NCBI GenBank assembly: GCA_965204745.1
Contig: OZ242010.1
Span: 1,472,001 to 1,536,000 of the forward strand
Length of the DNA stretch: 64,000 bases
Direction: 5' to 3'
Source: Candidatus Latescibacterota bacterium
GTDB taxonomy: Bacteria > Latescibacterota > UBA2968
This document shows positions 1 to 12,357 of the stretch, piece after piece. Numbering within the stretch: the stretch's first letter is position 1; each line of letters starts with the position of its first letter. The position numbers and the translations under genes are program-made. The notes beneath the pieces were generated by a model, which saw nothing but the letters and a program-made list of their open reading frames with translations, was not told where the DNA came from and made no database searches.

Positions 1-744
1 CGGATGTAAGGGGAGATGCATCACGAAAAATCAGCGCGGCCGCGACCTGCGTGTTTCAATCCGCTCCCCTCACGGATGTAAGGGGAGATATGTCATTCCT
101 TGCTGTGATTGATGGTTTGAAAGACTTGTTTCAATCCGCTCCCCTCACGGATGTAAGGGGAGATTCAATGAGGGTGATGCGCTGATTTTTTCGTCGCTCA
201 TGTTTCAATCCGCTCCCCTCACGGATGTAAGGGGAGATAGCAGGCCGCGGCGGTGGTGCGCGAGCTAGGAAAAGTTTCAATCCGCTCCCCTCACGGATGT
301 AAGGGGAGATTTCGCGCTCGCGCTCGCCTGGTTCATCGGTATCGAGTTTCAATCCGCTCCCCTCACGGATGTAAGGGGAGATCGAGGCATTCCAGCGCAT
401 GGTGCGCGGCATTTCAAGTTTCAATCCGCTCCCCTCACGGATGTAAGGGGAGATTTACGCTTGGAAAGGTCGCGACATCGCTCGGACAGGTGTTTCAATC
501 CGCTCCCCTCACGGATGTAAGGGGAGATTTTATACGCGCTCTCGATGGCCTTTTCCGCGCTCGTTTCAATCCGCTCCCCTCACGGATGTAAGGGGAGATT
601 CGATTTGGTGCATTTTGTTGCTGTGTTTCATCTCGGTTTCAATCCGCTCCCCTCACGGATGTAAGGGGAGATTGATCCTCTCCTCGCTCCTCGATGAGAG
701 ATCCGCAGTTTCAATCCGCTCCCCTCACGGATGTAAGGGGAGAT
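1..744 (-). CRISPR. Type I-C CRISPR array (truncated by window start): 10 complete 37-bp repeats plus 1 partial, 10 spacers of 34-38 bp
   Basis: Identical repeat GTTTCAATCCGCTCCCCTCACGGATGTAAGGGGAGAT at 53,128,202,274,346,418,492,563,636,708 and partial at 1-17. The reverse complement ends ATTGAAAC and has the hairpin CTCCCCTTAC/GTGAGGGGAG followed by an 11-nt tail, typical of I-C. Confidence 0.99.
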
Positions 745-969
745 GCTGGTTGTTGTAACCAGCGGCACAACAAAAAGTTACACAAGCGGATGCGCGAACC
801 TCCTTCCTTTGCTTCAATCCGCTCGAAAAGTAAGAGGGAATATTGCGATGTAAATTGTTATTGGTCATAAGTTTAGTCCATTGCGCGAAAGCACGGGCAA
901 AATGCCATCACTCCCCTTTCGCGCCAAAAAATAATTCAAGCCGATCTCCTCATCGGATCGAGGAAAGGG
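745..969 (-). promoter_or_regulatory. CRISPR leader
   Basis: Non-coding, partly AT-rich stretch between cas2 and the first repeat. Contains GCGCGAA motifs (792, 883), an inverted TTCGCGC (918) and IHF-like AT tracts, as described for type I-C leaders. Confidence 0.85.
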
Positions 970-1260
970 CTAAAGAATAAGCGGCTCGTTTAGGTCTATG
1001 GGTTCTTTAAGCCCGTGATGCTCCGTCTTGTTTTTGGCGTTTTCGTCCAGATGGTAAAACCTCAGGGAATCCTGCTTGGGATCGATTTCTTTTAGCAGAC
1101 GATCCCTGAGTGTTGCCCATTCCGTTTTTCCAAGTTGGCATTCAAAAAGCGATTTTTGAGCGCGAACACCGTAATCCTCACAGGCTCTTGCCACTCGGCG
1201 CAACCGCTTTTGCCCGGCGCGGTCAGATGTGGAAACGTCATAAGCGATCAAGACAAACAT
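970..1260 (-). CDS. cas2: CRISPR-associated endoribonuclease Cas2
   Basis: MFVLIAYDVST...RLRRVARACEDYGVRAQKSLFEC...DSLRFY; start reset to ATG at 1260. Confidence 0.97.
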   Translation of the reverse strand: MFVLIAYDVSTSDRAGQKRLRRVARACEDYGVRAQKSLFECQLGKTEWATLRDRLLKEIDPKQDSLRFYHLDENAKNKTEHHGLKEPIDLNEPLIL

Positions 1261-1294
1261 GTTCGATCTCTTTCCCTTATCCACAAAGGGAGAT
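1261..1294 (-). repeat. Degenerate solitary CRISPR repeat abutting the cas2 start codon
   Basis: Minus strand ATCTCCCTTTGTGGATAAGGGAAAGAGATCGAAC-ATG: same 5' ATCTCCC, a TCCCTT/AAGGGA stem and a GATCGAAC tail (consensus GATTGAAAC). Confidence 0.65.
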
Positions 1295-1298
1295 GGGG

Positions 1299-2360
1299 TT
1301 ATTTGTAGATGAATGGGATATAGTCGGGGATATCGCCGCGGAGTTTTCGGGCCAACAATTTTGATTGGATGCTGAACACTTGCCCGATGCGGATATTTTG
1401 CTTGAACAAGGGATGCTTGATTTCCGTTTGTTTGCGCCGTTGCCAAGCTCGGATGACCTCTCTCCTGCCCCGGTCGGTAAATTCCACAGCACCGCCTTCT
1501 CGCACGCGAAAGTGTTTGGCCTCAATTTGGCGGCGGTTGATCAGGGTCAACGCCAGCCGCTCTGCCAAACAGGGGCGAAATTCTTCCATCAGATCCAAAG
1601 CGCAGGCTGGCCTCCCGGCCCGCGTCGCATGAAGCCAGCCGACATAGGGATCCAGCCCGGCAGTCGTCAACGCGGCCAAACAATCGTGGCGGATCAGCGC
1701 GTAAATGAAGGAAAGCAAACAGTTGATTCGATCCCGAGGCGGACGGCGCGTGCGCGTTGTGAACGCGAAGGTTTCGCGCTGTTGTTTGAGCATGTGTTGA
1801 AAGACCGAAAAATAGATCTTGGCCCCAAGGCCCTCAAATCCCCGGATCGGGTCGAGTGCCTCTCGGAGCGTGCGATCTGACGTAGCAGACGGCGCGTTGC
1901 CGAGTTGGCGAATCAGCCTGGCGAGTTCGGCAACAGCATCCGACAATGCCGTGCGATCCGAATCCCGATCTGCTTCCCGGGCGGATCGCAAGAGGTTTGC
2001 ACGCGAGTTTTGCAGTTTGCCGGCGACGAACTGCTGGGCAATGCGGGCCGCATCCTCTGGGCTATCCGCCGCGGCGTACTGCGCACGGCGCAACAAGTAG
2101 CGCGTGTCGCCACTGCCAATGACCTGTGCCAGCAGATAGCCGCTCTCCGTGTGATAATGCACTGCCACTTGGTGTTGCCAGCACAATGCCATCGCCGGCG
2201 GCGTGACCACGACTTGCCCAAACGCGCAGATGCTTTCCAAGTGGTGAATCGGCACGCGCAAGCGGGTTTGCCTTTCGATTTCGACTCGGAGCGTCAGATG
2301 ATCTCGGTGTACCACTGTCTTGGGCGTCGTCAGGTAAAGGGTGTTTTGAATCTCGGCCAT
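1299..2360 (-). CDS. cas1: CRISPR-associated endonuclease Cas1 (type I-C)
   Basis: NTLYLTT, RGFEGLGAKIYF, RTRRPPRDRINCLLSF, GLDPYVGWLH, LALDLMEEFRP motifs; ATG at 2360 with SD AGAGGA. Confidence 0.98.
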   Translation of the reverse strand: MAEIQNTLYLTTPKTVVHRDHLTLRVEIERQTRLRVPIHHLESICAFGQVVVTPPAMALCWQHQVAVHYHTESGYLLAQVIGSGDTRYLLRRAQYAAADSPEDAARIAQQFVAGKLQNSRANLLRSAREADRDSDRTALSDAVAELARLIRQLGNAPSATSDRTLREALDPIRGFEGLGAKIYFSVFQHMLKQQRETFAFTTRTRRPPRDRINCLLSFIYALIRHDCLAALTTAGLDPYVGWLHATRAGRPACALDLMEEFRPCLAERLALTLINRRQIEAKHFRVREGGAVEFTDRGRREVIRAWQRRKQTEIKHPLFKQNIRIGQVFSIQSKLLARKLRGDIPDYIPFIYK

Positions 2361-2370
2361 AATGTCCTCT

Positions 2371-2406
2371 GTTTCAATCTGTTCCCTCACGGATGTCAGG
2401 GGAGAT
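2371..2406 (-). repeat. Near-perfect solitary CRISPR repeat at the cas4/cas1 junction
   Basis: GTTTCAATCTG-TTCCCTCACGGATGTCAGGGGAGAT: 33 of 37 positions match the array repeat; overlaps the last cas4 codons. Confidence 0.95.
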
Positions 2407-3046
2407 ACACGTCCCGATAGGCCCGCGCCAGTGCAGAAGGGGCACTGGTGATTTCGGGCAGGCAATGATCAAAAAGCGAACACTCCGAACACTGGGGTTT
2501 GTGAATGGCGTTGGGGACTGCCTCCGCTTCGACGAGCCGATGCACGGCTTCAACCGCCTGTTCGGTGAGGCGGCGCAGTTCCTCGGTAAATACCACCTCT
2601 CGGCGGTGCTTGCTGCTCGCATGGAAGATGGCCCCTCGGGGAATGTCCAGCCCAAACATTTCTTCCAAGCACAGGGCTTGCGCGCAAAGTTGGGCATCGT
2701 CATTGTCAAATTTTCGTCGGCGACCCTTTTTGAACTCAACCGGAAACAACGATCCGTCGGGATGGCGTTCGACGATGTCGCACCTGCCGCTGAGCCGCAG
2801 CCGATCTGACCAAACGGGCAAGGCACGCAACAGCGTCACACCCCCAACCGTTTCGTAACCAGAAACATCGGCCTGCTCGTGGAACTGATTACCTACCAAG
2901 GTGTGTTCGTTGTCGCTAAAGGTGCCTTCGACATGAATCAGGGCAGCCCGGCGCGGACAATAAAGATACTGGTTGATGGCAGAGAGCGGGATGCTCCGAT
3001 CTGCATCATCTGATGGACTAGGCAGAACAACCATTGCTTTACTCAT
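2396..3046 (-). CDS. cas4: CRISPR-associated exonuclease Cas4
   Basis: LSAINQYLYCPRR, GRCDIVE, PVEFKKG, AQLCAQALCLEEM, C-terminal CSECSLFDHC Fe-S cysteines. Confidence 0.97.
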   Translation of the reverse strand: MSKAMVVLPSPSDDADRSIPLSAINQYLYCPRRAALIHVEGTFSDNEHTLVGNQFHEQADVSGYETVGGVTLLRALPVWSDRLRLSGRCDIVERHPDGSLFPVEFKKGRRRKFDNDDAQLCAQALCLEEMFGLDIPRGAIFHASSKHRREVVFTEELRRLTEQAVEAVHRLVEAEAVPNAIHKPQCSECSLFDHCLPEITSAPSALARAYRDVYLP

Positions 3047-3083
3047 GTTTTAATCCGCTTCCCTCACTGAGGTAAAGAGAGAA
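3047..3083 (-). repeat. Degenerate solitary CRISPR repeat abutting the cas4 start codon
   Basis: GTTTTAATCCGCTTCCCTCACTGAGGTAAAGAGAGAA, 30/37 identical and ungapped; its last base is directly followed by the cas4 ATG. Confidence 0.9.
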
Positions 3084-3094
3084 GCGGACTTGCT

Positions 3095-4051
3095 TTACTC
3101 ATGACGTTTATTCAAACGCACGCCGGCAGGCAGGTCGGTGTCGTCCCATCCGCAGTTGACCTCGTAATCGGCAAAAGATTTGGGAAATTCCACGCCATCC
3201 TTCAACTTCACCTCAATGCCCTCAAAGAGTTTGTGGGCATGAGCGCAACCGAGGCGGGCTTCTCGCCTGTTCTGCGCGGCGTTGTTCTCGTGCTGAGTGC
3301 CCACATGCTCAAAGTCGTAGATGCCGCGCACCACCATTTCGCCGCGAGCAGCGGAGCGGTCGTGCTCAAACATGTGGTTGAGCGCGTCAAAGAGAACCTC
3401 GAGGTCAGCGTTGGTGAACCCCGTGCGTTCGGCAAAAGCAGGAGACACGTAAGCCTTGGCCATATAGAGGGCGTAAGGCACAATGTGCTTATTGCCCATG
3501 GTGCGTTCCTTCTCGGCGTCCTCCTCTTTGGTCACGGCCATGCGAGTGATGGAGATCTCCATCGGGGTGATAGAATGGTACGATTGACCGAAGGTGATCT
3601 GTACCGGACCGCGCACTTGGCCCCAAGCGGAGCCTCTCATAATGTCGTCGCCGACAGAAAGCACACCACCAAAGGTGCGGACATCAAAGAACTCGCGGCA
3701 CAGCCATTTCATGGCGGCTTCCTGCTTTTCGGATTTGGACGCACCCGAGGCCAAGCCCTCACCGCTTTTCTCAATGCCATTATTGATCTCGTTGTTGAGC
3801 ACGGCGCCCTGCTTGATCAGCAGATTATAGCCGTTGGCACCATTCTCCCCAACCCGCTCCGGGGCGAACATTTCGACGAAGTTCCGCACTTTGCGCTTGA
3901 GGCACACATCGGAGACGATGCCACGGTTGGTATTGGGATCAAGACGCGGCATGTTGCCGGCATCGGGATCGCCATTGGGGTTGCCATTCGTGACCTCGAA
4001 GATCAGCAACACATCGTGCCGATTGGTGAGAATGTCGTTGATTTCGTTCAT
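3095..4051 (-). CDS. cas7: Cas7/Csd2 (type I-C backbone)
   Basis: NGNPNGDPDAGNMPRLD, VSDVCLKRKVRN, FFDVRTFG, QVRGPVQ, MFEHDRSAARG. Confidence 0.98.
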   Translation of the reverse strand: MNEINDILTNRHDVLLIFEVTNGNPNGDPDAGNMPRLDPNTNRGIVSDVCLKRKVRNFVEMFAPERVGENGANGYNLLIKQGAVLNNEINNGIEKSGEGLASGASKSEKQEAAMKWLCREFFDVRTFGGVLSVGDDIMRGSAWGQVRGPVQITFGQSYHSITPMEISITRMAVTKEEDAEKERTMGNKHIVPYALYMAKAYVSPAFAERTGFTNADLEVLFDALNHMFEHDRSAARGEMVVRGIYDFEHVGTQHENNAAQNRREARLGCAHAHKLFEGIEVKLKDGVEFPKSFADYEVNCGWDDTDLPAGVRLNKRHE

Positions 4052-4072
4052 CGTTCAATCTCCTGTCAGGGG

Positions 4073-4489
4073 TTATTGGTTATCGGCTTCTTTGTTTTGC
4101 TTGGCCGCGTCGCGGGCGACGCGGTCGGCGGCTTTTTGCTGGTAAAAGCCGATGGCGAACCGCCCCTGCGCGTGCAGGTCCAGCGTGCGGGGGAATTGGT
4201 TGACTTGGGTCAACACATCTTGAATGGCTTCGTCGAGGAAACGCTCATGGTTTTCATATTTGTCGGACTTGCCGATTTTGCTGAGGTGATGGCGGTTGAG
4301 CTTGAGGAGGATGGGAAACACCGAGGCCGGCGAGGCCATGGCGGTGCCAAAGTACCGTTCGACAACGCCAGCACCTTCAAGCTTATAGTCATGCGCCTTG
4401 GCCTGAGTTTCGGCGAGTACGGCGAGCAACCGCCCGCATTGATAGGCCGCATCGCCCGCATCGGCGGTTTGTCTTTCTGCAATTTCCAT
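4073..4489 (-). CDS. cas11: Probable Cas11c small subunit translated from an internal start in cas8c
   Basis: In-frame ATG (MEIAERQ) with SD AAAGGA upstream, just before the YxxGRL motif; internal Cas11 translation is established for type I-C. Confidence 0.7.
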   Translation of the reverse strand: MEIAERQTADAGDAAYQCGRLLAVLAETQAKAHDYKLEGAGVVERYFGTAMASPASVFPILLKLNRHHLSKIGKSDKYENHERFLDEAIQDVLTQVNQFPRTLDLHAQGRFAIGFYQQKAADRVARDAAKQNKEADNQ

Positions 4490-5926
4490 AATGTCGTCCT
4501 TTCTGTTTCGGTTTAGAATGAGTTTCGCCAAGGCGAAACGGGAATGGTTCAATAATGCCGTGCTCCCATCGCGCGCTATATCAACGCGCAGGCGGTTCAG
4601 CATGGGATGCAGTAAAGTGAGTGAAGGGGCAACACCTTCTAGTGCTGCGCGAAACAACTGAGCGGTCACTTCCGGTTGCAAATACTTCGCCTCTCGCACC
4701 GTAGTACAGGCCAGTCGGAATAGGGCCAACGGCGGCATTTTTTCCTTGCCGGAAGACGGGCGTACAGGCTCCAACTCAAGGTCGCTGAACCAGCGTTGCA
4801 GGTTTTCCGTAGCGGTTTCTAAGGTGGTCTGAATCCAGTGGCGCACGACGATCCGACCACTGTTGCCCGCGAGGGTGACAGCATGGAACTGCTCCTGCCG
4901 CAATGCCTCGCGCTCTTGACCAGACCATGGGGATTTGAGGAAATCCGCCACCGCCTTGGGGTCAGCTTGGTTGAGTAAATCACTCCAAGTGCTCGTGGCG
5001 TTCGTTTTGTTGCGAGTCCAGAAGCAACACGATGCCTGCCCCAAGCGAATGGAATGATCCTCACGACCAAGCATCCAGTTAAGCGCGGTGCAATAGGCGG
5101 TGACCGCCCGGGTGGAAGTGGAAGCATTGAGACTTTGCTCAAAACCGTAAGAAACGAAAGCATCCTTATCAAATGAGACAATCGCCGCACCAAAGGCTTG
5201 GGTGTTGGGCACGCCTTGCACTTTGGGGTTATGAGTCAGTGCAATGGGCTGATCGCGTTCACCAGTGATCAAGCAGTGACCGTGAGGCGCGTCTGTCTCA
5301 TGGGCTTCATTTTCCTTCTCGAATTGCCGCCGCCAAAAGGGCCTGATGTGGTTTTCGTCTTCCAGCAACAATTGTTCTCTCAAGCGGAATGAGAAATTGT
5401 CATTCCCTAACTTGACTTCCTCGCCATCGGCTTTGGTGATCCACCAAGCGGATTTTTCTTGTGGCTTGGGATCGGAACTGGTACCCCAGCGCAAAAAAGA
5501 TGGCATCTGCCCCGGCTCGGGCTTGAAAGCCAGCAGGGACTTCAATGCCTGACTGCGTGTGTCCCCATGGGCCTGTTCAATTTGTGCCCAAAAGTCATCG
5601 TATTTCCGGCAATTGTTTTTTATTCGATCCTTCCGCTGGTTTTCAGACATGGATTTTTCCGGGTCCGTATCGAGACCGAATACAGCCGTGATGCTGTCCG
5701 CCATGAACTCGGCCACGCCACCGGCATTCTTGGGCCGCGTGGTTTGCGGGCAACTAAATTCTTTTCCTTTTCCCTTCCTTTCTCCCACAGTTTCTACGGG
5801 ACCCTGTCCGACAAAGTTGCCCATATCGTCCAGCGCGATGATCCATCGCACCGCTTTGGATTTGAAAGCCAAATTGTCGAGGAGTTTTCGCGAAATTGCA
5901 AAGTCGTACAGATGTTTCAGCAACAT
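4073..5926 (-). CDS. cas8c: Cas8c/Csd1 large subunit
   Basis: HCLITGE, AAIVSFDKDAFVSYG, NSGRIVVRHW, AYQCGRLLAVL, QGRFAIGFYQQK; start reset to MLLKHL. Confidence 0.95.
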   Translation of the reverse strand: MLLKHLYDFAISRKLLDNLAFKSKAVRWIIALDDMGNFVGQGPVETVGERKGKGKEFSCPQTTRPKNAGGVAEFMADSITAVFGLDTDPEKSMSENQRKDRIKNNCRKYDDFWAQIEQAHGDTRSQALKSLLAFKPEPGQMPSFLRWGTSSDPKPQEKSAWWITKADGEEVKLGNDNFSFRLREQLLLEDENHIRPFWRRQFEKENEAHETDAPHGHCLITGERDQPIALTHNPKVQGVPNTQAFGAAIVSFDKDAFVSYGFEQSLNASTSTRAVTAYCTALNWMLGREDHSIRLGQASCCFWTRNKTNATSTWSDLLNQADPKAVADFLKSPWSGQEREALRQEQFHAVTLAGNSGRIVVRHWIQTTLETATENLQRWFSDLELEPVRPSSGKEKMPPLALFRLACTTVREAKYLQPEVTAQLFRAALEGVAPSLTLLHPMLNRLRVDIARDGSTALLNHSRFALAKLILNRNRKDDIMEIAERQTADAGDAAYQCGRLLAVLAETQAKAHDYKLEGAGVVERYFGTAMASPASVFPILLKLNRHHLSKIGKSDKYENHERFLDEAIQDVLTQVNQFPRTLDLHAQGRFAIGFYQQKAADRVARDAAKQNKEADNQ

Positions 5927-5928
5927 GG

Positions 5929-6732
5929 TCAGGCTCCGTTCGGTTCGAGGATTTCGATTTCGTCGGGGTGGCAAACCAAGGTGGAATCTATGATCTTGGC
6001 ACGGAAGAAACAGGCTCTCGGTCGGGCCAATTCGCCGACACAACGCGGGGTATTCTTTTTCGGTTTGGGCCCTAGTTCATCAGGGCGTTTCCAGCGAAAG
6101 CCCTGGGCGCGGGCGTTAGGCGAAAAAACATCGTAGAGCATCAAGCCCAAGTCCTCCTCGGGTTGCCGCCAACTGGTGCCAAGTTCGGTGGTTCGATCTT
6201 CCAGGGAGGCTTGGGGATCATCTACCCACTCGAAGTCCGCCGCAAATTCGCGCATGCCCAAGGCGGGGCGGTGGAAGCACTTGCCCTGCTGGGCGCGGCG
6301 TTTGAATTCAGCCAAGTACTTCACTGGTGGGTCGGTTTTGGGATTCGCCAACGGCGTGGTACGCAACTCGGCACTGATGATGTACTCCACCTCCTGCAAT
6401 GCCAGCATGTTGCGCTGGGTGCCGGCTGGTGCGCCGCCCCCGGCCTCAATGGGCGAGACTTTCTCCGGCTGTTTCATCCATTGACCAACATTGCGAATGC
6501 TGATAACTGATTGCACTTCATTGCGCCGAATCGAGGCCCAGCGACCTCGCCGAATTATCCGGATGGTAGCGACGAGATAGCGAACTTGCGGCTCCCAAAA
6601 GATGGCCTCCAAGATGCCTCGGGCAACAGAAGGCGTCATAATTGGGTAACTGACGCGCTCCACTTTCATTTCGGGGCGCGTGAAACATGCCCAATCGCCC
6701 CAAACTCTCAGGTGTACTTGGTTATCTTTCAT
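5929..6732 (-). CDS. cas5: Cas5c/Cas5d crRNA-processing subunit
   Basis: VWGDWACFTRPEMKVERVSYPIMTPSVARGILEAIFW, GKCFHRPALGMREF, DLGLMLYD. Confidence 0.97.
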   Translation of the reverse strand: MKDNQVHLRVWGDWACFTRPEMKVERVSYPIMTPSVARGILEAIFWEPQVRYLVATIRIIRRGRWASIRRNEVQSVISIRNVGQWMKQPEKVSPIEAGGGAPAGTQRNMLALQEVEYIISAELRTTPLANPKTDPPVKYLAEFKRRAQQGKCFHRPALGMREFAADFEWVDDPQASLEDRTTELGTSWRQPEEDLGLMLYDVFSPNARAQGFRWKRPDELGPKPKKNTPRCVGELARPRACFFRAKIIDSTLVCHPDEIEILEPNGA

Positions 6733-8972
6733 AACAAAAAATCCTCAGTCGGATGTTGGTCAACAACTACGCCGAGATGTTCGTGATAGGCGGCCTCTCT
6801 GAGTACATACAGTTCCATACCGGGCAACAGCGGGCAAAGCAACCCCATTGCGTAGAGTTTTTGAAAATCACGCGAATGCAGATTCACCATAAAGCGTTGG
6901 AGACCGCGCAAGTCCTTGCGCGTAAAACGCGGCCCATCTTGGGTGCGCTCCCGGATCGCGGCGACCTCTTTTAAGGATTCCCCCCAGGGCGCAATGACGG
7001 CCCGGGTGTCATCGCTAATTACCTTCGCTTTGCGGGCCACTTCTCGGAAACGCAACTCTTTTCGATCTTCCTGAATAGAGCATTCCCGTTTGACATGATG
7101 ATCCGTGGGCACGTATTCAAAAAGCTCTCTAAAGTAACGCCCAAACAACGTCGGATCGCCAGACAAATCGTCCGTATCCAATTGATCCAGCAACCGCGCC
7201 GCAATGTCCGTGGCGACGCGATAGACGCCGACTGGCAACTTGGCGTCCATTGGCCGGAACACCACCACGCGCCCCTTGCTCGGCAGGCGTCCTTCCCGAT
7301 TGCACCGCCCTGCTGCCTGCACAATGGAGTCCAGCGGCCCCAAGGCGCGATAAACCAACGGGAAGTCGATATCCACCCCGGCCTCTACCACCTGCGTAGA
7401 AACCAACCAACAAAATCGGCCTTCCCTTAAACGCCGCCGAACCTTTTTAATCACTTGGGTTCGGTGTTCTGCACACATAGCAGACGAAAGGTGCAATACA
7501 CTCCTCAACTTGGCTTCCAACTCATCTTCTCTCAAGCCTTGCTCTTTCAAAGAATCCCTCAATAGTTCCCACCATTCGGCGGCCTGCTTGCGCGTATTCA
7601 CCACCCCCAAGGCTCGAGGTTCGCTTATCCATTCCGCAGCCAATTCCGACCAATCGCTCTCTGTCTTTCGCACCTCGTACACTACCCGCCCCAACTCGTT
7701 AAACAAATCGCCGGGTTGCGATACAATTTCCTTTACTTCATTCGCATCAAACCCCTGCGGCAACGATGGGCTTTGTCTAAAGGCCGGTTGGGTAGCCGTG
7801 GAAAAAACAAAACTCACTCGGTAGTGTTTCTCGAGATCGCGCAATACATGTAGCAATGGATCGAGCAGATGTGAAGGCAAGGTCTGCACCTCATCCAGCA
7901 ACACCACGGAATTTGCGATGTTGTGTAGTTTTCGGCACTTGGAGGTGCGGTTGGCAAAGAGGGACTCGATGAACTGCACCGAGGTGGTGACGATGATCGG
8001 CGCGTCCCAGTTCTCCGCCGCCAACTCCTCGGGGGACCGACCTTGTTCGTCATTATCATCTTTTGAAGCCACGGCCGAATGGTGCTCAATCACAATGCCT
8101 CTGTTTTTCGGATCGAGCACTTTGCGGTACTCGGCGGCGTTTTGCTCGATAATTGACAGGTACGGTATGACCACGATCACCCGTTGCATTCCATGCCGCC
8201 GCGCATGTTCCAAGGCAAAGGCCATGCCCGAAAGCGTTTTGCCCCCACCTGTCGGCACGGTCAGAGAAAAGAAGCCCGCTGGCTCTGCCGCCTTTGCCAA
8301 GCACTCTTCAAACACCCTGTTACGCAACGCATTGAGTTCGCCAGAAGAATCAAACTTGCCCCGGTGCGCTTGCAGTCGCTCCAGCAACGACGTTGCATCC
8401 AACTTCACCGAGCGTCGTTCTTGGCCGCGGCTAAATTGTTCCGTATCCAGAAAATCCGCATCCACCAAGCAGGAAAACAACATTCGCACGTAGAATTCTG
8501 TGATGGCGGGATCGTCAAATTCCGGTTCGGCTAACTCGTTGGGAATTTTGCCCAGTTCCTCTTCAAACCGGTTGACCAGAGGATCGAGCCCGTTCATAGC
8601 ATCGTACTTTTTCCCATAAACCAATGCCTGCAAATCGCTCAAGTCATGCAACCCCGCATGATGCCCGGCAACGGCAAAAGCTGGGCCGCCCCACCCTCGT
8701 TGAAAAGCCAGCGCAGCACCATACACCGCATGATGTGTTTCAGCGGATACAAGGCGTTTGCCTGCCAGATATTCTTGGAATGGCTGCCGATATTTTCCAA
8801 GGTCGTGCAACAGACCTGCGAGGTGGGCTTCATCTGCCAACCCAAAGGGAGCGGCGAATTGTCGGGCCAATTCCGCGACATTGTGCAGATGGGTAGAAAG
8901 CAATTGCCAGCGCGATTGATTCGGATCGCGTTCTCCGGTCTCTGTTTCGGCTGTGTGGGCGTAATAGTTCAT
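6729..8972 (-). CDS. cas3: Cas3 HD nuclease-helicase
   Basis: YYAHT..HL..VA, LLHDLGKY HD domain; TVPTGGGKT, DEVQ, STATQP, STQVVEAGVDIDF, QAAGRCNREG. Confidence 0.98.
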   Translation of the reverse strand: MNYYAHTAETETGERDPNQSRWQLLSTHLHNVAELARQFAAPFGLADEAHLAGLLHDLGKYRQPFQEYLAGKRLVSAETHHAVYGAALAFQRGWGGPAFAVAGHHAGLHDLSDLQALVYGKKYDAMNGLDPLVNRFEEELGKIPNELAEPEFDDPAITEFYVRMLFSCLVDADFLDTEQFSRGQERRSVKLDATSLLERLQAHRGKFDSSGELNALRNRVFEECLAKAAEPAGFFSLTVPTGGGKTLSGMAFALEHARRHGMQRVIVVIPYLSIIEQNAAEYRKVLDPKNRGIVIEHHSAVASKDDNDEQGRSPEELAAENWDAPIIVTTSVQFIESLFANRTSKCRKLHNIANSVVLLDEVQTLPSHLLDPLLHVLRDLEKHYRVSFVFSTATQPAFRQSPSLPQGFDANEVKEIVSQPGDLFNELGRVVYEVRKTESDWSELAAEWISEPRALGVVNTRKQAAEWWELLRDSLKEQGLREDELEAKLRSVLHLSSAMCAEHRTQVIKKVRRRLREGRFCWLVSTQVVEAGVDIDFPLVYRALGPLDSIVQAAGRCNREGRLPSKGRVVVFRPMDAKLPVGVYRVATDIAARLLDQLDTDDLSGDPTLFGRYFRELFEYVPTDHHVKRECSIQEDRKELRFREVARKAKVISDDTRAVIAPWGESLKEVAAIRERTQDGPRFTRKDLRGLQRFMVNLHSRDFQKLYAMGLLCPLLPGMELYVLREAAYHEHLGVVVDQHPTEDFLL

Positions 8973-12188: not shown

Positions 12189-12357
12189 AAAGATACAAGG
12201 GGAGACGGGAGACGGCTGTCCAAGCGGTCAGTGGTCTGTCCTATTTTCGGCCGGGAAAAACCAAAAAGTCGCTGCTCCGGCCCCTGCTAATCATACAGGG
12301 GACTGCTTTCGCGGGCGTGATAGTTGTGCTTTTTATCCGCGTTCATCCCTGATTACA

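Follow-up and report, generated by a model that had tools for sequence, protein, structure and literature searches.

The window, the whole stretch of 64,000 nucleotides that was analysed, carries a complete type I-C CRISPR-Cas locus in its first 9 kb, on the minus strand. All cas genes were named by NCBIfam models and lie in one polycistronic operon, 5' to 3' cas3-cas5c-cas8c-cas7-cas4-cas1-cas2, followed by a leader and the array. The models were cas3 core and HD domain for cas3 (6729-8972), TIGR01876 for cas5c (Cas5d; 5929-6732), TIGR01863 for cas8c (Csd1; 4073-5926; E 4.6e-99), TIGR02589 for cas7 (Csd2; 3095-4051; E 6.8e-87), TIGR00372 for cas4 (2396-3046; E 4.4e-36), TIGR03640 for the type I-C cas1 (1299-2360; E 7e-127, exceeding the curated cut-off) and TIGR01573 for cas2 (970-1260; E 1.6e-17). 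The leader (745-969, minus strand, 225 nt) contains two repeat-like fragments, detected with a covariance model and Smith-Waterman alignment, and the leader-proximal end of the array fills positions 1-744 and continues past the window start, on the same strand. The 37-nt array repeat ends in GGATTGAAAC and recurs with a period of 71-75 nt; 10 exact copies are found in the window and 194 in the genome. On the transcribed strand its 3' end is GGGGAGCGGATTGAAAC, and its fold, of -17.4 kcal/mol, is a 10-bp stem closed by a 4-nt loop.

A scan of positions 700-4200 gave no sigma-70-like promoter sites, and no sense-strand terminator was found at the junctions. Rfam returned nothing but weak, below-threshold CRISPR-DR9 matches on the array itself. 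When public DNA runs were compared with positions 700-3300, many different leader-proximal spacers (708-745) were observed, which show that spacer acquisition is active in nature. The same runs contained in-frame 3-nt insertions close to the cas4 start (3003-3010, the Cas4 N-terminus).

A solo repeat at the end of cas4

The minus strand of positions 2371-2406 reads ATCTCCCCTGACATCCGTGAGGGAACAGATTGAAAC, a 36-nt degenerate copy of the adjoining array's 37-nt repeat in sense orientation, which we call the solo repeat-like unit SRU-2. It agrees with the repeat at 33 of 37 positions, the four differences being T10G, the loss of one G from the G-run, G26A and G28A. In a search of positions 745-64000 with a covariance model of the family, for which its 24 distinct array repeats were used, just two matches were significant: SRU-2, with 24.9 bits and E 1.8e-5, and 3047-3083, with 25.6 bits and E 1.1e-5; the latter belongs to the unit SRU-1 described below. 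SRU-2 is also the best off-array blastn match in the 5.5-Mb genome, where the top three off-array matches (blastn-short) were SRU-2, SRU-1 and one orphan outside the window. It is solitary, lies about 1.6 kb from the first array repeat and has no array membership.

The cas4 reading frame ends TAT CTC CCC TGA, and its stop (2396-2398, minus strand) is placed in the 5' arm of SRU-2, as the first-pass annotation had noticed. The first 11 nt of the unit are the coding end of cas4, made up of two bases of one codon, the last two sense codons and the stop, and the other 25 of the 36 nt are intergenic. Directly 3' of the unit, again in agreement with that annotation, is the cas1 Shine-Dalgarno sequence AGAGGA (2365-2370, minus strand), which is the same in the closest relative, L038, and then the cas1 ATG (2358-2360); 35 nt separate the cas4 stop from this ATG. 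The array repeat has TTA at the site of the TGA. This had been described as the only change, which is correct for the 16 nt quoted at the time, while the whole copy differs at the four places given above. Neither was the change needed for termination, since a back-up in-frame TGA, which is part of the repeat consensus, follows three codons past the stop (2387-2389). The consensus has stops in two of three frames (a TGA within GTGAGG and one within GATTGAAAC), and therefore an open reading frame entering the repeat in those frames terminates there. The built-in cas4 stop is thus largely a by-product of the repeat's own sequence.

At three positions where all 24 array variants agree, SRU-2 does not: it has lost one G of the 3' arm, and both the base preceding the cut site and handle base 2 are substituted. 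A putative Cas5c cut, if any, would fall between 2382 and 2381, where the context is A/CAG in SRU-2 as compared to an invariant G/CGG in the arrays (the slash marks the cut). The fold of the unit reaches -9.7 kcal/mol, against -17.4 for the array repeat, and its stem has three non-standard pairs, whereas array stems pair in 240 of 240 cells. With flanks included, the z-score was -0.45 and 57 of 200 shuffled sequences were equally stable. A residual, interrupted 6-bp stem ends 2 nt before the handle, with a stability no better than that of shuffles. The minimum-free-energy fold of the region pairs GUGUAUCUC with GAGGACAU, and the paired part includes the cas1 Shine-Dalgarno sequence. Opening this sequence costs 3.1 kcal/mol, or 2.5 with a ribosome on the cas4 stop, as compared to 3.2 ± 2.0 with shuffled upstream sequence; SRU-2 thus had no structural effect on its accessibility beyond the shuffled controls.

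Copies of SRU-2 in the locus pairs L044-L053 (8/37 mismatches) and L044-L049 (8/36) diverge about like four-fold degenerate sites (P 0.21 and 0.33). The window and L038 agree throughout the first 17 nt, and the alignment of their 3' halves has 14 gap letters. One alignment of the two gave 2 mismatches in 25 for the aligned 3' part (P 0.015), in a short, indel-rich stretch where the alignment is ambiguous. Some constraint on SRU-2 may exist, to judge from the identical 17 nt and these 2 mismatches. Four public DNA runs have contigs that bridge the solo repeats, and none of the 40 differences listed for them, out of 90, fall in 2371-2406, but at 0.2-2.7% divergence this comparison says little about conservation of the unit. 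The bases A13 and C16 of SRU-2 are, among the 24 array variants, present only in the window's own repeat, and 9 of 16 junction copies have A-A-C or A-A-A where all arrays have G-A-G-C. This suggests that SRU-2 may be a mosaic, in which array sequence has replaced part of an older junction copy.

Solo repeats in related loci

With Cas1 as query we assembled a close set of 40 loci, consisting of the window, 34 loci on genome contigs (Cas1 78-93% identical) and five on metagenome contigs, of which four have 82-85% Cas1 identity and one, L095, has 58% and serves as outgroup. One locus of the genome set, L071, has a stop inside cas1. Arrays were found in 34 of the 40 loci (none were found in six), all with the same kind of 37-nt repeat. 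The 24 distinct variants are invariant at positions 2-7 and 22-37, and the complete pairing of their stems is accompanied by covariation at three pairs. The non-array sequence of the 40 loci, 270,087 nt per strand, was scanned by Smith-Waterman alignment with each locus's own repeat at a score of at least 24.

The scan gave 17 sense-strand matches in the cas7/cas4, cas4/cas1 and cas1/cas2 junctions, distributed over 12 of the 40 loci; these loci are related, and because of their shared ancestry the number of copies overstates the number of independent events. Only one antisense junction match was found, in the palindromic SRU-1 of L038, and only one sense match inside any cas gene. The same scan of 40 more distant I-C loci, which have canonical 32-nt repeats, gave a single junction match. 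In the Cas1 tree the solo copies fall in several clades. That copies are still recognisable across lineages near synonymous saturation would need either selection or repeated gene conversion. In L038, whose Cas4 is 93% identical, the same fusion of cas4 and repeat is found as in the window, and other relatives have related solo copies at the cas4/cas1 junction. L038 has no array within 9.5 kb on the array side of cas4, nor in the 0.5 kb just past cas2. Its array of 256 repeats (G018:C1:672502-690000) is about 300 kb away from the cas locus (369039-372689), yet both solo repeats are kept.

In 31 of the 40 relatives Cas4 has an unrelated tail, whose end comes four residues past a conserved V-F pair. 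The ending VYLP-stop is restricted to the window and L038, where the join falls within the F/Y codon. Since 31 of 40 end otherwise, the tail of the window's Cas4 is repeat-derived rather than conserved coding sequence, and this alignment of C-termini also argues that the match to the repeat is not coincidental. In L046, L047 and L060 cas4 likewise runs into repeat remnants and stops at TAG, TAA or the TGA of the handle. Repeat-derived cas4 stops are thus found in five loci, and repeat-derived UUG starts in 11 genes, either cas1 or cas2. In eight loci cas2 has no in-frame start candidate other than the TTG in the handle GGATTGAAAC, before which the 3' arm of the repeat contributes GGAG-like bases, and the same handle TTG is the only in-frame candidate for cas1 in L044, L049 and L053. 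In most other solo copies the handle directly abuts an ATG. The earlier proposal that the repeat has been integrated into the coding architecture therefore holds, and is general: it extends to the fusion in L038 and to the other cas4 stops and UUG starts of the relatives.

Some weaker repeat-like sequences were also observed. The leader fragments at 811-836 and 935-967 (minus strand) reached 12.9 bits (E 0.13) and 7.5 bits (E 6.5) with the covariance model and were seen with Smith-Waterman alignment as well. The one at 935-967 follows directly after the cas2 stop and the other is located 64 nt before the first repeat. Degenerate repeats would normally be looked for at the distal end of an array. 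The 38-nt spacer between cas1 and cas2 (1261-1298, minus strand) starts with ATCTCCC and ends with GATCGAAC directly before the cas2 ATG. This possible, very degenerate unit, SRU-3, gave no covariance-model match at E<=10 and no significant fold, and is a weak candidate for a repeat-like unit. The orphan outside the window (G000:C1:2440176-2440228) is intergenic, and its last 26 nt are 92% identical to the repeat; aragorn called no tRNA beside it. Four loci with a distant I-C effector module have a handle-like GCGGATTGAAAC motif on the opposite strand upstream of cas5 (L040:316-330, L041:738-749, L043:799-814 and L061:135-150).

The adaptation module cas4-cas1-cas2 with the 37-nt repeat was seen joined to three different effector modules: the I-C type of the window, an I-C type only 40-45% identical to it, and a third with a divergent cas3 next to cas4. 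The loci concerned are L044, L047, L050-L052, L056, L059, L064 and L068, and L040-L045, L061, L091, L092 and L094. In several relatives, and not in the window, a small open reading frame for a retropepsin-like aspartyl protease (PF13975, E 1.5e-8; L063:4395-4787) is inserted between genes of the adaptation module; it is listed in the cas7/cas4 gaps of L048, L049, L055, L061, L062, L068 and L071.

The hairpin between cas7 and cas4

SRU-1 (3047-3089, minus strand), a repeat-like unit with 6 nt of 5' flank, differs from SRU-2 in having a strong fold. Its hairpin (3052-3090) has a 14-bp stem of -23.0 kcal/mol (z -6.47; none of 200 shuffles equally stable) and ends 7 nt before the cas4 ATG. The unit sits in a 56-nt insertion flanked by a perfect 14-nt direct duplication, which splits an ancestral 8-nt overlap of cas7 and cas4; the uninterrupted arrangement is kept in at least eight relatives. 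Copy 1 of the duplication (3090-3103) contains the cas7 stop, and copy 2 (3034-3047), identical to it and on the same strand, contains the working cas4 start.

SRU-1 changes slowly. Three pairs of copies had 4/42, 4/45 and 7/45 mismatches as compared to four-fold divergences of 0.28-0.42 (P 0.003, 0.0007 and 0.0001), and between the window and L038 the unit is conserved with one compensatory pair, U-A to C-G. With the SRU-1 stem, 11.4 kcal/mol are needed to open positions -12 to -7 upstream of cas4, as compared to 3.8-5.6 for the other cas genes. The first handle bases are locked in the extended stem, which argues against simple recognition by Cas5c. Judging from these features, SRU-1 rather than SRU-2 is the stronger candidate for an element that works, one that might, for instance, insulate the adaptation genes from the heavily used cas7.

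In a second lineage (L057, L060, L093) cas7 and cas4 are separated by a comparable insertion with a different flank and a 13-nt imperfect duplication, and the two SRU-1 groups differ both in flanking sequence and in duplications. Casposases, which are homologues of Cas1, are described as making target duplications of 13-15 bp (PMC5137440). The 14-nt duplication fits this range, and by analogy one may entertain the idea, and only the idea, that SRU-1 was inserted by a Cas1-type integrase. None of the 191 extant spacers has a 3' end matching the 6-nt flank of SRU-1.

Cas5c of the clade

The catalytic triad reported for Bacillus halodurans Cas5c is Y46, K116 and H117 (PMC3973291). Five solved homologues (3VZI, 3KG4, 8DEJ, 8DEX and 7KHA) have H-W-K-P and K-H, which in the Cas5c of the window are replaced by F-W-E-P and K-Y. 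Among 20 close loci, F stands in place of the catalytic Y/H in 19 and Y in place of the catalytic H in 19. As read from the alignment, the Cas5c of this clade is without both canonical acid/base residues of the described triad. According to the work on Cas5c processing, the enzyme recognises the cut site and the downstream handle and not the loop or the 5' part, and its tolerance to substitutions near the cut site differs between enzymes (PMC8524198), so that calling SRU-2 a poor substrate is an inference. Considering its sequence, SRU-2 is most likely no longer a good substrate for Cas5c.

Discussion

The best explanation we can offer, and to which we give about an even chance, is that SRU-2 is a domesticated and decaying solo repeat of the locus's own array with at most a weak regulatory effect. 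Solo repeats would have entered the short junctions of cas7, cas4, cas1 and cas2 throughout the clade of adaptation modules with the 37-nt repeat, and have been domesticated there as intercistronic sequence. The lineage of the window would then have lost the ancestral Cas4 tail (...VFDTxD-stop) together with its spacer of about 40 nt, after which the cas4 frame would run 11 nt into the repeat and stop there because the repeat has stops in two of three frames. The 5' half of SRU-2 appears to have been refreshed from the array by gene conversion, since the lineage-specific loop is common to both, while the 3' half would have drifted. cas1 is probably translated from its own Shine-Dalgarno sequence just downstream of the unit, and it is SRU-1 that seems to carry the signs of selection, in a stable and conserved hairpin that would bury the region just upstream of the cas4 start.

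The recurrence, the strict sense orientation and the confinement to adaptation junctions could equally fit selection for an element responding to Cas5c or Cascade. It is conceivable that the solo repeats are crRNA mimics in the cas mRNA, bound or cut by free Cas5c, alone or together with Cas7, either a short way upstream of the start regions of cas4, cas1 and cas2 or inside them, so that the Shine-Dalgarno sequence is cut off from the start or the start is covered, and the adaptation genes are held down when effector subunits exceed pre-crRNA. The bias of 17 sense to one antisense junction matches, only at adaptation junctions, and the near absence of matches in distant I-C loci speak for this. 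Most of 22 folded instances keep a residual stem 1-2 nt before an 11-nt handle-like tail (structures read by eye), and the handle, which with the cut site is what Cas5c is described to read (PMC8524198), usually abuts or contains the start codon. Solitary repeat RNAs of phages are reported to inhibit CRISPR systems (PMC10651486), and for solo repeat units a possible role in binding and down-regulating effectors has been suggested by Shmakov et al. (PMC10120712). The handles, however, are invariant in all 24 array variants and yet variable in the solo copies (CAG..., ...TTAAAAC, ...TTGCAAC). Copies of SRU-2 evolve at about the neutral rate, the first handle bases of SRU-1 are locked in the extended stem, and in the Cas5c of the clade the Y/H and H of the published triad (PMC3973291) are replaced by F and Y. 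Solo copies are also present in loci with a different effector module. Such an operator we consider a tentative and somewhat unlikely account of SRU-2, and for the set of solo repeats as a whole a Cas5c-responsive role is plausible if still doubtful. Further still, Cas5c might nucleate Cas7 on the handles at the cas4, cas1 and cas2 starts, so that the adaptation genes act as giant pseudo-crRNAs and free effector subunits throttle their translation, the repeats perhaps having been inserted by a Cas1-type integrase; this we regard as unlikely.

Cas4 and Cas1 act as a complex, and their balanced output would make sense, which together with the location of the cas4 stop (5' arm, with 35 nt to the cas1 ATG) and the pairing of a stretch including the cas1 Shine-Dalgarno sequence invites a model of translational coupling. 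In that model the cas1 start or a site of cleavage is hidden by the structure of SRU-2 until ribosomes that complete cas4 open this structure, and the output of Cas1, or cleavage, is thereby linked to translation of cas4. The first-pass annotation had reasoned along this line, proposing that melting of the hairpin by ribosomes could make cleavage depend on cas4 translation, and for this we found no support. The hairpin is weak and no better than shuffles, invariant bases have been changed, the cost of opening the Shine-Dalgarno sequence does not differ from that of shuffled controls and hardly shifts with a ribosome on the stop, and the acid/base residues of Cas5c are replaced. The same pairing occurs in L038 through identical sequence, which gives no covariation in its support, and we judge coupling to be very improbable. 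The solo repeats could also act at the DNA level, as patches of array homology or footprints of recombination or gene conversion that let cas4, cas1-cas2 and the array swap effector modules. One adaptation module (Cas1 78-93% identical) beside three effector modules, cas4 flanked by solo copies, SRU-1 in an insertion with a perfect 14-nt duplication at the boundary of effector and adaptation genes, and the mosaic of array-like and junction-specific halves in SRU-2 all agree with this, and recombination is among the roles considered for solo repeats by Shmakov et al. (PMC10120712). Against it, the loci with other effectors are without a match of at least 24 at or just upstream of cas4, the nearest being an antisense match of 22 in L047. 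Moreover, 37 nt of imperfect homology are a poor substrate for recombination, and the slow change and the compensatory pair of SRU-1 are left unexplained, which makes a DNA-level role quite improbable. That the end of cas4 merely resembles a repeat has nothing in its favour beyond the short length of the element. This reading was rejected on an E-value of 1.8e-5 in 63 kb, the rank of SRU-2 as top off-array match in 5.5 Mb and the different ends of homologous cas4 genes, and the two lineage-specific loop bases common to SRU-2 and its own array also contradict it; its probability is negligible.

Repeat-like sequences in cas loci have been described before. In the survey of Shmakov et al. 2023, at least one was found in 34% of 1206 I-C loci (Table 1), and mini-arrays in 7% (PMC10120712). 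SRU-2 resembles their solo units in being an off-array copy of the locus's own repeat inside the cas locus, similar to the repeat (33/37; E 1.8e-5) and conserved in close relatives. Their scan, as it is described, covered intergenic regions, whereas the units here overlap coding ends and supply stop and start codons; they lie at short junctions of adaptation genes with no mini-array, while those reported are in long gaps near cas3, cas8 or cas6 (PMC10120712). The text of that paper, as far as consulted, gives no positions for I-C and does not mention cas4, but its supplements may list such cases (PMC10120712). The literature that we searched, which did not extend to many subscription papers or to the per-gene I-C tables of Shmakov et al., held no account of repeats that flank cas4 or supply start or stop codons of cas genes.

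The mini-CRISPR regulators CreR, CreA and crlRNA are likewise described as degenerate repeats in cas loci that exploit the affinity of the effector for repeat RNA. They consist of two pseudo-repeats around a pseudo-spacer of 20-60 nt that partly matches a promoter, whereas the nearest partner of SRU-2 is SRU-1, 640 nt away and with the whole of cas4 between them. For the pseudo-spacers of the leader, no stretch of at least 10 nt was matched upstream of cas3, and elsewhere only two short matches, at 12304 and 13295, were seen. Hairpins between cistrons can, in bacteria, set the relative output of the upstream and downstream genes. SRU-1, with its 14-bp stem 7 nt before the cas4 ATG, fits this picture, whereas SRU-2 is without significant structure, and unlike generic intercistronic hairpins both derive from a CRISPR repeat. 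The Racrs are RNA anti-CRISPRs of phages, each with a solitary repeat; RacrIC1 is reported to share a bicistronic RNA with AcrIC5, and each inhibits type I-C (PMC10651486). They resemble SRU-2 in being a single repeat unit on an mRNA beside a protein gene, and they act by binding Cas subunits (PMC10651486). Racrs are, however, described from phages and plasmids and inhibit the system of the host (PMC10651486), whereas SRU-2 belongs to the host's own chromosomal cas operon, is more degenerate and is only a putative binder.

Solo repeats in cas loci are thus already known, but have been treated as intergenic RNA genes. Here the repeats are woven into the coding sequence, as stops, Shine-Dalgarno-like sequences and UUG starts of the genes for spacer acquisition, and this is seen repeatedly within a single, horizontally spreading family of adaptation modules. 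Were they inert, they would be a clear case of CRISPR repeats that spread and were domesticated as ordinary gene punctuation, and a warning for gene callers and array finders. If Cas5c or Cascade still binds them, they would be a simple post-transcriptional brake on adaptation, which bears on how cells keep the activity of Cas1-Cas2 low. Should the reading of the adaptation genes as pseudo-crRNAs be true, it would imply a protein-RNA feedback that ties the capacity for interference to the acquisition of spacers.
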